DNA from: Candidatus Binatia bacterium
GTDB taxonomy: Bacteria > Desulfobacterota > Binatia > UBA12015
Assembly (NCBI GenBank): GCA_019749875.1
Contig: JAIEPK010000479.1
Span: forward strand, 7,184 to 71,183
Direction of reading: 5' to 3'
Length of the DNA: 64,000 nucleotides
Under the pieces are notes generated by a model. The model saw only the letters and a program-made list of their open reading frames with translations. It made no database searches and was not told the DNA's origin. The position numbers and the translations under genes were made by a program. Positions 22,633-28,969 of this stretch are shown piece by piece (the stretch's first letter is position 1; each line of letters begins with the position of its first letter).

Positions 22633-22679
22633 GGTGGACACCCCAAATCCGGCCAATGATCGACAGCTGAAAACCGGCC
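22633..22679 (+). repeat. Copy 2 of the ~47-nt repeat
   Basis: ggtggacaccccaaatccggccaatgatcgacagctgaaaaccggcc. It matches the reverse complement of 28923-28969 with 3 mismatches over 47 nt. Confidence 0.65.
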
Positions 22680-23027
22680 ATAGGAGAGCGGCCGGGACGG
22701 GGGTTCAGTAGTCGATGTTCTCCTTCGCGATCAAGCGGCGGTCGGTGTCGTCGCGTTGAGGCGCGTCCTCCAGCTCCGTGGTCCGCGCATTTCAGCACGT
22801 GCCTCAGGAGCACAAGGGTCGGTCGCAGAAGCGACGCCGGTACGGAGGGTAGCCCGGTCGGCCGACGCATCGCGAGGATTTCAGGCGGATCTACGGGGCG
22901 ACGCGAACGCCAACCCGAGGCGCCGGGGGCAAGACGACCTGGTCGAGACTCCCTCTCGTGCGCTCTGAGCGGCTCACGGGGGGAGTTCCGCTTTTGGACT
23001 CCCGGAATTGTCAAACCGCTGCTGCCT

Positions 23028-23044
23028 CCCCGGCGGAGCCGGGG
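23028..23044 (-). terminator. GC-rich hairpin downstream of flhB (weak terminator candidate)
   Basis: ccccggc-gga-gccgggg, a perfect 7-bp stem ~40 nt after the flhB stop; no U-tract. Confidence 0.25.
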
Positions 23045-23081
23045 GGACTCCCTTGATGTGCCAGTCGTTTCGTTCGCATCG

Positions 23082-24152
23082 TCAGCTCATCCGCTGCGCT
23101 TGAAGGCCGTAGATGTAGGCGAGCACCTCGGCGACGGCCCGATACAAGCCGTACGGGATTTCGCTGCCTACCTTGACGGTACGGTAGAGCGCGCGCGCGA
23201 GGGTGCGACGCTCGACGATCGGCACGCCGCCCGCGCGCGCCAGCTGCTTGATGCGCTCGGCGACCTCGTCGACGCCCTTCGCGACCACGCACGGTGCACC
23301 CTGCTCGTCGCCGCGATAGCGCAACGCCACAGCGAAATGCGTCGGGTTGGTGATCACCACGTCGGCGGTCGCGACCTCGCTCAGCATGCGGTTGTTGTTA
23401 AAGTCGCGGTATGCGCGCTTCATCCGCTGGCGGAGCTTGGGATCGCCCTCGGATTGGCGCATCTCGTCCTTGATCTCCTGCCGCGACATGCGGAGGCTCT
23501 GCTGGTGCGTGCGCCGTTGCCAGATGTAGTCGAACGCCGCCAACACAGCGAGCGTCGAGCCCACCCATAGCATCATTCGCACCAGCTCGGCCCCGCCTAC
23601 GGCGAGAATTTCGCTCGCCGACAATAACCCGACAGACCGTAGGCGATCTAGCGTCGACAACACCACCTTCCACGCCACCCACGACACCAGTACAATCCTG
23701 ACGATATTCTTGATTAGCTCGACGAAGCCGCGCAGCGAGAAGATGCGCTTCAGGCCGGTGCTCGGCGAGATGCGCGATCCCTTCGGGAGGAGCAGCTGCG
23801 GATAGAGCCCGACGCCGACCTGAGCGAGGTTGCTTGCGACGCCGGCGAGCATCATCGCGAGGATCACCGGCAGGGTCGCGGAGACGATCACGGCGCCCGC
23901 GTCGTAGAATGCCTGTCCCACCTGCGCCGGTGTCAGGTCAGCACGCGCGACCTGCATCAGGCCGTGCCGCATCGCCTCGCGCAGATCGCGCGACGTCGTG
24001 CCACCCCACTGAGACATCGCGATCACCGCGGTAAGCAGCACCGTCGCCGATGTGACATCCGACGAACGCGCTACCTGGCCCTCCTCGCGAGCTTTCTCGG
24101 CGCGCCGTGGTGTAGGCTCTTCGGTTTTGTCGGAGAGATCTTCTTCCGCCAT
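23082..24152 (-). CDS. flhB: Flagellar/T3SS export apparatus switch protein FlhB (YscU/EscU family)
   Basis: N-terminal MAEEDLSDKTEEPTPRRAEKAREEGQVARS, four TM helices, NPTH autocleavage motif in VVITNPTHFAVAL. ATG at 24150-24152. No other flagellar genes in the window. Confidence 0.85.
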   Translation of the reverse strand: MAEEDLSDKTEEPTPRRAEKAREEGQVARSSDVTSATVLLTAVIAMSQWGGTTSRDLREAMRHGLMQVARADLTPAQVGQAFYDAGAVIVSATLPVILAMMLAGVASNLAQVGVGLYPQLLLPKGSRISPSTGLKRIFSLRGFVELIKNIVRIVLVSWVAWKVVLSTLDRLRSVGLLSASEILAVGGAELVRMMLWVGSTLAVLAAFDYIWQRRTHQQSLRMSRQEIKDEMRQSEGDPKLRQRMKRAYRDFNNNRMLSEVATADVVITNPTHFAVALRYRGDEQGAPCVVAKGVDEVAERIKQLARAGGVPIVERRTLARALYRTVKVGSEIPYGLYRAVAEVLAYIYGLQAQRMS

Positions 24153-25930: not shown

Positions 25931-25968
25931 CCGCTTGCGCCGGGGGAGAGAGAGCGCGCCGCGCGACG

Positions 25969-28383
25969 CTATGACTGGAGCCGCATGGCCCGCAGGCGTA
26001 AAGCGTTGGTGATGACGGACACCGAGCTCAGCGCCATCGCGGCCGCCGCAAGCATGGGGCTCAGAAGGATTCCGAAGACCGGGTACAGCACGCCGGCCGC
26101 GATCGGTACCCCGACCGCGTTGTAGAAGAAGGCGAAGAACAGGTTCTGGCGGATGTTGCGCATGGTCGCCTCCGAGAGTCGGCGCGCCCGGACGATGCCC
26201 GTCAGATCTCCCTTCAGTAGCGTGACGCCCGCGCTCTCGATCGCGACGTCCGTGCCGGTGCCCATGGCGATACCGACGTCGGCGGCCGCAAGCGCCGGTG
26301 CGTCATTGACACCGTCACCGGCCATCGCGACGACGCGGCCCTGCGAGCGCAGCCGGCGCACCACGTCCCCCTTGTCCTCGGGAAGCACTTCCGCCTCGAC
26401 TTCCTCGATGCCGAGGTCCGTCGCTACCGCCCGCGCGGTGGCTGCGTTGTCTCCGGTCAGCATGACCACCCGAATGCCGTCGTCCCGTAGCGCTTGGATC
26501 GCGTCGCGGGTGGTCGGCTTGATTCGGTCGGACACGGCCAGCATCCCGGCCGGGCGGCCGTCGACGGCGAGGAGCATGACCGTCGCTCCCTTCGCACGCA
26601 GCTCGTTGGCAGCACCCTGGAGCTCTTGCGTGGAGACGCCTGACTCCTCTAGCAGGCGGCGATTTCCGAGGAGCACCTTGCGCCCGTTCACCGTACCGAC
26701 GACGCCCCTGCCGGTCGGCGCGTCGAATCCTATCACCTCGGACAGCGCGATACCGCGCTCGCTCGCGCCGGCGACGATCGCGGTCGCGAGCGGGTGCTCG
26801 CTCGGGCGCTCGAGGGTCGCTGCAAGGCGCAGCAGCTCATCCTCCGTGAACCCCGCGGCGGCGTGCACGGCGGTGAGCGCCGGGCGGCCCTCGGTGAGCG
26901 TGCCCGTCTTGTCGACGATGAGCGTGTCGACTTTCTCCAAGCGCTCGAGGGCCTCTGCGTTCTTGATCAGCACGCCGGCGCTGGCGCCGCGCCCGACGCC
27001 GACCATGATCGACATCGGCGTCGCGAGCCCGAGCGCGCACGGGCATGCGATGATCAGCACACTCACCGCGGCGATCAGTCCGTAGGCCATCGCGGGAGGG
27101 GGCCCGAGCAGCGACCAACCGACGAACGCTGCCACCGCCACCATCAAGACGGCCGGCACGAACCACCCCGACACTTGGTCCGCGAGGCGCTGAATCGGAG
27201 CGCGGCTCCGCTGTGCCTCCGACACCATCCGCACGATGCGCGCCAGCATCGTATCGCGTCCGACCTTGTCCGCGCGCAGGATGAAGCTGCCGGTGCGGTT
27301 CAGCGTGCCGCCAATCACGCGGGCGCCCACTTCCTTCGTAACCGGCATCGACTCGCCCGTGACCATCGACTCGTCGATCGCGCTGCGGCCGTCGACGAGC
27401 ACGCCGTCGACCGGCACCTTCTCTCCCGGCCGGACTCGGACCTGGTCACCGACCTGCACGTCCTCGAGCGCGACCTCCTCGTCCTCACCGTTGGCGCGTA
27501 CGCGTCGTGCGGTCGCGGGGCTCAGGTCGAGCAGCGCGCGGATCGCGCCACCGGTGCGCTCCCGCGCGCGCAGCTCGAGCACCTGGCCGAGCAGCACCAG
27601 CACGACGATCACCGCAGCCGCCTCGAAGTATACGGCGACGCCGCCGTCGGGACCGCGGAACGCTTCGGGAAAGATCCCCGGCGCGACGGTCGCGACTACG
27701 CTGTAGAGCCAGGCGGTACCCGTGCCGATCGCGATCAGCGTGAACATGTTGAGGCTGCGCGCGCGAAACGATGCCCATCCACGGATGAAGAACGGCCAGC
27801 CCGCCCACAGCACGACCGGCGTCGCGAGCAGAAGCTGTGTAGACGTCGACACGCGAGCCGGAACGAGGTGATCGAGCCCAGGCAGATGCCCGCCCATCTC
27901 CAGGGCGAGGACCGGCAGCGTGAGCAGAAGGCCAATCCGGAAGCGCCGCTGCATGTCCACCAGCTCTTCGCTCGGACCAGCGTCGGCGCCGAGAACCTCC
28001 GGCTCGAGCGCCATGCCGCAGATCGGGCAGGTGCCCGCCCCCACCTGCCTGATCTCGGGGTGCATCGGGCACGTATAGATCGTGCCCGACGTCATGGACC
28101 CCACTTGCACCGCGGCGGCTTCGCCGGCCGCGCTCGGTCCGGCGAAGCGCTCAGGCTCAGCGAGGAAACGTTCGCGACAGCGCGCGGAGCAGAACCCGTA
28201 CGCCGCCCCGGCATGCTCCGCGCGGTACTTCGCCGTGGTCGGATCGACGTTCATGCCGCACACGGGGTCGACGGTCTCGGCGGCTCGAGGAACCGAGTGA
28301 GCGCTATGGTTGTGTTCGGCGTGCACGTCGCGGGCGTCGCCGTGCGACGGCGTCGGACGGTGATCCTTCATGGCGACCTCCAT
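25969..28383 (-). CDS. copA: Copper-translocating P1B-type ATPase with N-terminal His-rich/YHS-like and CPxCG metal-binding extensions
   Basis: CPC in [28 protein letters not shown] motif SEHPLA. N-terminus has DPVCGMNVD...FCSARC (YHS-like) and CPMHPEIRQ...CPICGM. Confidence 0.9.
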
Positions 28384-28922
28384 CGACTCCCTGATCGGTT
28401 GCCCGCTCGGCCCCGGCTAGAGGGACGCGAGTCGTTGCCAAAAAGCTGGCCCCGCGGGTCGTCGATCGAGCACAGTCCATGATCGTCGACGCGACAGGGT
28501 CGTGACGCGGTAGAAGGCTTCGAGATCGTGCCGGCCCATCAGCATCGCGCGAGCCGACGAGAGAGCCGCATTCAGTACCAGACACGCACTCCGAACAGGA
28601 ACCACACGTCGTCGACCAAGCTCGCCTTCGTCGCGAACGAGTCGACGGGTGTGTCCGAACTGTCCCGTGTACAGCCGTCCGGGCGCGGAGTCGAGGTGGT
28701 ATCGAACACCGCATCCCGGTCGAAGTATCGAGGAATGCGGATCCGGCGCGAACTCCGGCCACGTGAGCCGGTCGTCGTCGACCCATTCTGGCGCGAAGCC
28801 TTCTGACTTGAGCCCAGATGCGGATGTAGTCCGTCCCGACCCGCACTTGCCTTCACGTCGCAGGTCCGGCCCTCGAGCTGATCGAGGAGAACGTGCCCGA
28901 ACACCGCCTCGTCCGCGACGGG

Positions 28923-28969
28923 GGCCGGTTTTCAGCCGTCGATCATTGGCCGGATCTGGGATGTCCACC
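28923..28969 (-). repeat. Copy 3 of the ~47-nt repeat (inverted relative to copy 2), overlapping the 3' end of the Fur-family gene
   Basis: Reverse complement reads ggtggacatcccagatccggccaatgatcgacggctgaaaaccggcc. Weaker similarity continues ~60 nt beyond the core. Confidence 0.65.

Follow-up and report, generated by a model that had tools for sequence, protein, structure and literature searches.

What does a near-identical inverted repeat pair on either side of a copper ATPase gene represent: the ends of a mobile unit, the hinges of an invertible segment, or something left behind? The question arises from a 64,000-nucleotide stretch of a Candidatus Binatia bacterium genome (GenBank assembly GCA_019749875.1, contig JAIEPK010000479.1, positions 7,184 to 71,183 of the forward strand), which we refer to as the window. 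Its two 47-nt arms, at 22633-22679 (+) and 28923-28969 (-), are separated by 6243 nt that carry an flhB gene, transposase debris, and the copper ATPase gene copA, and a third, diverged copy lies near the left end of the window. We number the copies 1 to 3 from left to right, such that copies 2 and 3 form the inverted pair. An earlier reading, made from the sequence alone (the sequence-only reading), had likened the pair to the ends of a composite transposon or an invertible cassette, with a duplicated gene end or a repetitive extragenic palindromic (REP)-like element as alternatives. We conclude with good confidence that the repeat is the right-hand terminal inverted repeat (R-TIR) of an unnamed IS21-family insertion sequence (IS), and that the copies are relics at rearrangement scars. 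The element is an unnamed member of a known family, and the window holds ordinary mobile-DNA debris rather than a working cassette or some new structural or regulatory element.

The repeat ends complete istA-istB elements

The two arms are identical at 44 of 47 positions (94% complementary), which agrees with the three mismatches first counted, and their longest unbroken identical run is 18 nt. The window has three occurrences of a core 22-mer, GGTGGACAYCCCARATYYGGCC (292+, 22633+, and 28948-), which is absent from 100 dinucleotide-preserving shuffles. When the neighborhoods of the three copies are aligned with MAFFT, they form a sharply bounded block with CCTC in front (CCT in copy 3), outside of which similarity is patchy and includes a short aligned stretch, GTTCTCCT..CGATCA. 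The weaker similarity that had been described for about 60 nt beyond the pair survives as this one stretch, while the BLASTN alignment of copy 3 extends over 28920-28973 and stops there. The third copy is real but short; its homology covers 288-320, with one mismatch to copy 2 over CCTCGGTGGACAYCCCAAAT.

We searched for the 22-mer in one genome per species from 185,579 species and in contigs of Joint Genome Institute (JGI) metagenomes. The species genomes gave a single match, at a contig end in a Vicinamibacteria metagenome-assembled genome, and the metagenomes gave 34 loci. At 31 of the 34, the match belongs to a longer shared sequence, CCTC-GGTGGACACCCCAAATCCGGCCA…AAAACCGGCCA, of the form CCTC-GGTGGACACCCCAAATCCGGCCA-nnn-(G/A)TGGACAnnnCAAAACCGGCCA (also given as CCTC-GGTGGACACCCCAAATCCGGCCA-nnn-GTGGACACCTCAAAACCGGCCA), and the DNA upstream of the CCTC is different and unrelated from one locus to the next. 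In most cases, 30-120 nt separate the metagenome match from a contig end, toward which it is directed, as is typical of a multicopy element at which assemblies break. The metagenomes contain at least 17 distinct end variants of this IS21 clade. A BLASTN search of copy 2 against plasmids gave no match. The three other loci are chance matches rather than IS ends and were set aside: L005 (9126-9150, 25 nt) matches inside a 622-aa open reading frame (ORF; VDTPNLAF), the sequence around the match in L014 (3057-3094) reads as coding (GRIWDVH), and the match in L018 is short, lies at a contig end, and lacks the IS tip.

Nine loci are complete elements, with a second, inverted end 2.56-2.88 kb away, a length within the range of the IS21 family (about 2-2.9 kb). 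Each encloses two genes, which encode a 524-563-aa IstA (rve integrase core and Mu-transposase C-terminal domain) and an IstB of ~254 aa. In L026 and L008, the larger ORF matches rve and Mu-transpos_C_2 and the smaller matches IstB_IS21 (PF01695) with E = 1e-60 to 1e-63; the remaining seven of the nine, besides L026 and the query source L008, match IstB as well. Because the repeat ends complete elements with istA and istB and is built from two subrepeats (see below), we identify it as an IS21-family TIR. The transposon-end idea of the sequence-only reading was therefore right in kind; its composite transposon and invertible cassette are unsupported, for reasons given below.

With istA followed by istB over 2.6-2.9 kb, TIRs of ~50 nt that contain two direct subrepeats per end, and one clear 8-bp duplication, the complete elements resemble IS21 and IS5376. 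They differ from the rest of the family in that IstA is at most ~41% identical to any plasmid-borne IS21-family IstA. The closest plasmid annotations are IS21-family istA genes such as that of IS1631 (41% identity over 97% of the protein). IS1631, from Bradyrhizobium japonicum and among the closest named relatives, also has ends with two subrepeats ~25 nt apart and a CAAA(A/T) core, GGTCGGTCAAAATCCCCC…GGTCACTTGAAACTCCCCC, but these ends are not alignable by BLASTN and the host belongs to another phylum. IS21-family elements generate target-site duplications of 4-8 bp. In L015 (1847-4411), a perfect 8-bp direct repeat, TCTCCGCG, abuts both CCTC tips, and this duplication would place the element boundary there, with tips CCTC…GAGG. 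A TG…CA pair sits 6 nt inside the tip in this clade (CCTCGG followed by TGGACA).

Left and right ends

The 47-mer of the window consists of two direct subrepeats 25 nt apart, GGTGGACACCCCAAATCCGGCCAAT and GATCGACAGCTGAAAACCGGCCATA, which match at 17 of 25 positions in register. A subrepeat spacing of 24-25 nt is present at both ends of 9/9 complete elements, and likewise in copies 2 and 3. In IS5376, the TIRs (55-bp assay substrates) are composed of two direct repeats, L1/L2 and R1/R2, both of which are required by IstA, and IstA forms a tetramer that pairs two ends (PMC10122671). By analogy, the subrepeats in the window would be IstA-binding sites.

The two ends of an element can be told apart. 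In 9/9 complete elements, the istB-side end carries the outer repeat ACCCCAAATCCGG, which is of the CCCCAAAT type, and the istA-side end, ACCCAAAACCGG (CCCAAAAC), is shorter by 1 nt. Within an element, the left end agrees with the right end in 37-44 of 48 aligned columns, with an indel every time. Copies 2 and 3 align at 44/47 with no indel, both are of the R type (the outer repeat of copy 2 is CCCCAAATCC), and they share an inner-repeat variant, AATGATCGACRGCTGAAAACCGGCC, that is found in none of the metagenome elements; copy 1 also has the right-end form. Taken together, the lack of an indel, the R type, and the shared inner variant indicate that copies 2 and 3 are two right ends of one IS species and not the left and right ends of one copy, a call for which the outer repeat and the spacing are the main grounds. 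With all three copies being right ends, they would be relics of separate insertions or of end duplications. A solo right end is not peculiar to the window: L006 has a right-end TIR (2700-2758) with no istB in the next 2.7 kb, so solo right ends of this clade occur elsewhere too.

These comparisons document an unnamed IS21 clade by a diagnostic end sequence, in which left and right ends are distinguishable. Such scars in Binatia and in other soil and sediment lineages could be annotated with its help.

Remains of the IS in the window

Unlike IS21 and IS5376, the window contains TIR relics and a short istB tail only, with no transposase of this IS (Table 1). About 200 nt of the IS are left at copy 2, namely, the TIR and ~150 nt that include a frameshifted istB tail. 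By BLASTN, copy 2 has 85% identity over 85 nt (22629-22712) with the complete L020 element, at the end near istB, and matches of 53-72 nt are found at about 30 further loci. Past a gap after the TIR, similarity to the 3′ end of the L008 istB resumes (BLASTN, 78% over 54 nt, 22750-22802). Residues 217-244 of the L008 IstB (~28 codons) align by tblastn with 43% identity and E = 0.06 at the expected position and strand, where …GPRSWRTRL… is read from the minus strand at 22752-22835 and the preceding LLRHVLKC lies in another frame. Between this tail and the junction with the flhA fragment (22836-23063), local alignment scores for a longer istB remnant are no better than shuffles. A tblastn search of the 64 kb with two IstA and two IstB sequences found nothing besides the istB tail, and neither tblastn nor six-frame reading of 28384-28990 revealed an IstA beside copy 3, this stretch being the copB pseudogene.

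Table 1. Repeat copies and surrounding features, in window coordinates
Feature	Position	Strand	Remarks
Copy 1, partial R-TIR relic	288..320	+	tip CCTC and R1 only (BLASTN)
Multicopper oxidase	20884-22311		left of copy 2
Putative N-terminal stub of IS3-family OrfA, VKKKRFSVEQITAVLQQVRG	22312..22378	-	outside copy 2; abuts the oxidase stop codon
Copy 2, R-TIR	22629..22712	+	tip CCTC at 22629; IS body to the right
Copy 2 subrepeats	R1 ~22633-22657, R2 ~22658-22682	+	conserved CCGGGAC box next
istB 3′-end remnant, degraded and frameshifted	22750..22835	-	…LLRHVLKC / GPRSWRTRL…stop; same IS copy as copy 2
Flagellar operon fragment	23064..24251	-	last ~100 nt of fliR, intact flhB, first 17 nt of flhA
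flhB, apparently intact, 356 aa	23082-24152	-	TIGR00328, 374 bits vs cutoff 349
Chimeric transposase debris, one ORF	24905..25400	+	IstA N-terminal helix-turn-helix (HTH) and IS66 C-terminus
DUF305 remnant	25769-25891	+	downstream of copA and convergent with it
copA, P1B-type copper ATPase with YHS and HMBD domains	25969..28383	-	Pfam; appears intact
copB pseudogene	28572..28925	-	starts with residue 93, directly against the inner edge of copy 3
Copy 3, solo R-type TIR	28923..28973	-	bare 51 nt, R1 and R2 only
Fur-family repressor gene, 171 aa	28943..29458	-	Pfam FUR; C-terminal GGHPRSGQ and stop encoded by copy 3

At copy 3, homology to all IS ends stops at 28920-28923, and the tip is mutated, reading TCCT-GG in place of CCTCGG. 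Copy 1 matches the clade consensus at 23 of 27 positions, tip included, and follows the stop codon of the gene at 445-1419 (-) at a distance of 124 nt.

The Fur-family gene, whose product is identical to MBY0278763.1 of Candidatus Binatia bacterium (a 100% match to P0001), takes its last eight codons and its stop from copy 3; the inner edge of this copy adjoins the copB pseudogene. The sequence-only reading had seen this overlap correctly, together with the nearly identical tail, GGHPKSGQ and a stop, in one frame of copy 2, and this is what made the conserved 3′ end of a duplicated Fur-type gene, or a generic REP-like element, worth considering. Both are refuted. There is no Fur-like ORF before copy 2, where the match is limited to the eight residues encoded by the repeat, and conservation runs ~20 nt beyond the stop codon. 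The closest Fur homologues (P0002-P0004, 58-68% identical) have other tails, which are basic, not conserved, and about as long or longer; the ending GGHPRSGQ is hence not typical of the family. REP elements and bacterial interspersed mosaic elements (BIMEs) are imperfect palindromes that fold into a stable hairpin and recur at many intergenic sites in a genome, with no link to transposase genes. Folding of either strand of the repeat is no better than that of shuffles (z -0.08 to +1.27). Furthermore, no Rfam family or tRNA matches at the repeat, the window has three copies in 64 kb, the species genomes yielded the one match noted above, and the metagenome copies bound istAB elements.

Synteny breakpoints

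Comparison with relatives places the copies at sites of rearrangement. In L059, a more distant relative, the gene order is AraC, fatty-acid hydroxylase, p198, FAD/NAD/2Fe-2S oxidoreductase, p253, cytochrome-like p272, multicopper oxidase, CopB, DUF305, CopA. The minus strand of the window reads oxidoreductase, p224, p258, Fur, copy 3, truncated copB, copA, DUF305 fragment. The AraC-hydroxylase-p198 block, which is adjacent to the oxidoreductase block in L059, lies at 2928-445, 31 kb away from it, in the window, and copy 1 adjoins the end of this block at the synteny breakpoint. Copy 3 marks the junction between the Fur gene tail and copB residue 93, with CopB homology beginning at 28922-28925. 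All three TIR relics coincide with synteny breakpoints. Both DUF305 and copB are upstream of copA in L059, and the change in the position of DUF305 points to further local rearrangement. In the relatives that carry the closest Fur homologues, the Fur gene follows a TonB-dependent receptor gene and overlaps a 137-aa gene; in an empty-site test, both of these proved absent from the window. DNA homology of the Fur gene to the relative L043 ends at 29013. More distant relatives show different contexts for the Fur gene, flhB, and copA, each separately.

The copB pseudogene is joined to the inner side of the TIR, not to its tip, and copy 3 is therefore not a simple insertion into copB. A deletion from just inside R2 to copB residue 93 would be the simplest account of the junction. 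The pseudogene has in addition an internal deletion of ~277 nt and frame changes; it is 80-84% identical to the L059 copB by BLASTN, with residues 93-113, 120-185, and 274-308 recovered by tblastn, and no Pfam domain is detected in its ORF.

Related strains share this arrangement. Eight contigs from strains that are 95-100% identical extend from the cytochrome and Fur genes across copy 3 (of these, five run well into the truncated copB and four reach copA), and two contigs span the oxidase through copy 2 toward flhB. All 10 are colinear with the window, and the breakpoints are thus fixed in a single arrangement. Among the strains, copy 3 varies by two substitutions and an adjacent 7-nt indel. 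The damaged tip, TCCT-GG, is present in 8/8 strains examined, so the relic is older than the 3-5% sequence divergence between them.

These observations are best explained by the following history. In intact relatives of ~2.7 kb, IstA would bind both direct subrepeats of an end (R1/R2 or L1/L2, at a spacing of 24-25 nt) and pair the ends, and together with the AAA+ helper IstB it would insert the IS with an 8-bp target duplication. One IS species would have entered the copper-resistance region of the Candidatus Binatia genome by separate insertions (or its ends would have been duplicated there), after which deletions and rearrangements would have removed the IS bodies and reshuffled the neighboring genes. 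The inverted pair around the 6.3 kb would be two relics that happen to face each other, their interior being a mosaic of an istB remnant, an flhB fragment, debris of a second IS21 and of IS66, a DUF305 remnant, copA, and truncated copB. The order of these events is our reconstruction, and the ends would now be inert. Remodeling of a copper-resistance region is on view here: a TIR is fused to a Fur gene, copB is truncated, and an flhB fragment is stranded.

The copies thus resemble the solo TIRs and IS scars of genomic islands, which are likewise isolated TIRs without a transposase at junctions of truncated genes; the junctions here are Fur tail to copB residue 93 and istB tail to flhA fragment, with IS3, IS66, IS256, and IS481 debris around them. 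Nothing essential separates the two cases. Only two details are unusual, namely, that copy 3 is trimmed exactly to R1 and R2 and that a regulator gene ends in a transposon end.

Several points weigh against the identification of the copies as scars of an IS21-family element. With CCTC…GAGG, the tips differ from the canonical TG…CA of IS21, if the single duplication in L015, from which the tip position is taken, is accepted at face value; a CA tip requirement is stated for IS5376 (PMC10122671). No target duplication is found at the other complete copies with both flanks (L004, L009, L025, and L027, as well as L020, in which one flank has only 3 nt), possibly because contigs that cross the repeat are chimeric. 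In copies 2 and 3, the inner subrepeat (…CTGAAAACC) is closer to the L2 than to the R2 of some relatives. Copy 3 keeps exactly the minimal two-repeat unit, which could be a coincidence or could reflect selection for, or a mechanism that makes, bare TIRs. Copy 1 is short and less secure than copies 2 and 3, and could conceivably be a chance match, since the coding-region match in L005 indicates that short matches like it can arise by chance. Lastly, the species-genome scan did not include the source genome, whose copy number was outside its reach.

A working unit?

The 6.3-kb segment might instead be a former, or still mobilizable, IS21-based transposon, consisting either of two inverted IS copies around a copA cargo, with the IS bodies lost later, or of a nonautonomous unit with two right ends that is served by IstA and IstB in trans. 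As in composite transposons and mobile insertion cassettes, outward-tipped inverted TIRs surround passenger genes that include metal resistance; each copy keeps both subrepeats, the minimum for IstA activity, and IstA can integrate in vitro with two right ends (PMC10122671). We nevertheless consider such a transposon unlikely. The sequence-only reading had proposed a search for a target-duplication signature, and none is present around the 22629-28973 unit, where the outer 8 nt read GCGCACGA at the left tip and ACTTCCAA at the right tip. The two ends share one type, the copy 3 tip is one base short in every strain examined, the window lacks a transposase of this IS, and the cargo is a patchwork of pseudogenes and fragments in which the flhB piece is an operon fragment and not adaptive cargo. 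A second context for the unit was not found in the ten contigs, a sample limited by their short length.

The history of copA itself bears on this question. CopA has 88.6% amino acid identity to the L059 CopA, compared with 39-60% for the syntenic neighbors, and the copA/IS66 stretch has a G+C content of ~0.70 against ~0.65 in the flanks, which suggests that copA was exchanged horizontally and would suit a mobile cargo. However, the inner edge of copy 3 abuts truncated copB, the native neighbor of copA in the relative, and copA was therefore not delivered simply as the cargo of two flanking IS copies. The more specific proposal that the segment is a nonautonomous cargo element, with two right-end TIRs of about minimal size and mobilized by the IstA and IstB of an intact copy elsewhere, is in our judgment decidedly improbable. 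If it were true, right-end/right-end integration, which is seen only in vitro, would have a natural counterpart, and the segment would serve as a vehicle that moves copA.

An invertible cassette, in which the segment would flip by homologous recombination or through a site-specific recombinase, is very improbable. The inverted pair brackets the segment with 44/47 identity, and with three relics at breakpoints, IS-mediated rearrangement in the past is likely, but the orientation is the same in 10/10 independent contigs that cross a copy, and the 18-nt run is the longest stretch of identity between the arms. There is no recombinase within or next to the segment; the nearest integrase, of the tyrosine type, is at 52780-53829, 24 kb away. 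Nor would a flip restore the ancestral order. A simple inversion that recreates the order multicopper oxidase, copB, copA was entertained and rejected, because the oxidase beside copy 2 is only a paralogue, 32% identical to the L059 oxidase and no closer to it than two other paralogues in the window.

Contents of the segment and its surroundings

The content that had been described between the arms (flhB, an IS21/IS66 remnant, and copA) is confirmed by Pfam and NCBIfam, and the same profiles found nothing further in small ORFs of 24116-25930 and 28307-29068. Homologues of FlhB (79-83% identity) are encoded in canonical fliM-N-O-P-Q-R-flhB-flhA-flhF operons. BLASTN homology of the flhB region to one of these relatives, L056, is confined to 24251-23064, and tblastn of the 64 kb with FliP, FliQ, FliR, FlhA, and FlhF from the operon of a relative found no other flagellar gene. 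Exact-protein look-ups of FlhB (from a 386-aa start), CopA, and P0001 returned no record.

The N-terminal part of the chimeric transposase ORF (~24905-25120) is the HTH of an IstA from a different IS21 clade (…LSQRAIARSVKVSQSTVNDYV…LTWPLPPELDDEALDRLLF), and the C-terminal part (~25150-25400) matches Pfam DDE_Tnp_IS66 at profile positions 216-282 of 284. NCBIfam reports transpos_IS66 (positions 293-369 of 387), an IS66 accessory TnpA, and the N-terminus of transpos_IS21. Such a fusion implies nested insertions followed by a deletion. An imperfect palindrome at 25398-25778, with 55-nt arms of 87% complementarity and a central 24-nt pair at 25552-25600, has a left arm that overlaps the IS66 transposase remnant. 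Its center, …GAGCACTTAC directly followed by GTAAGGACTCGCC…, resembles two IS66-type tips (GTAAG…) placed head to head.

To the left of copy 2, an IS3 transposase stub had been proposed just outside the repeat. The assignment is plausible but weak, as Pfam HTH_Tnp_1 is matched at positions 1-28 with E = 0.076 on 26 aa.

Judged by its gene content, the whole window looks like a copper-resistance island. It encodes three multicopper oxidases (5326-6813, 15320-16783, and 20884-22311), a resistance-nodulation-division (RND) pump (35595-38861), and an outer-membrane factor (40113-41585). Besides CopA, YHS domains are found in a cyclase-like protein (445-1419, -) and in a glycogen-phosphorylase-like protein (33070-35139, -), both of which are unusual partners for this domain. 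Further mobile-DNA debris lies at 49464-53829, a stretch that ends with the tyrosine integrase gene mentioned above: an IS256-type (Transposase_mut) remnant at 49464-50213 and a ~1.37-kb IS481-like element with 37-nt inverted repeats at 50148-50184 and 51482-51518 (TGTCACCTATGTGG…) and an ORF that matches HTH/LZ_Tnp_IS481.

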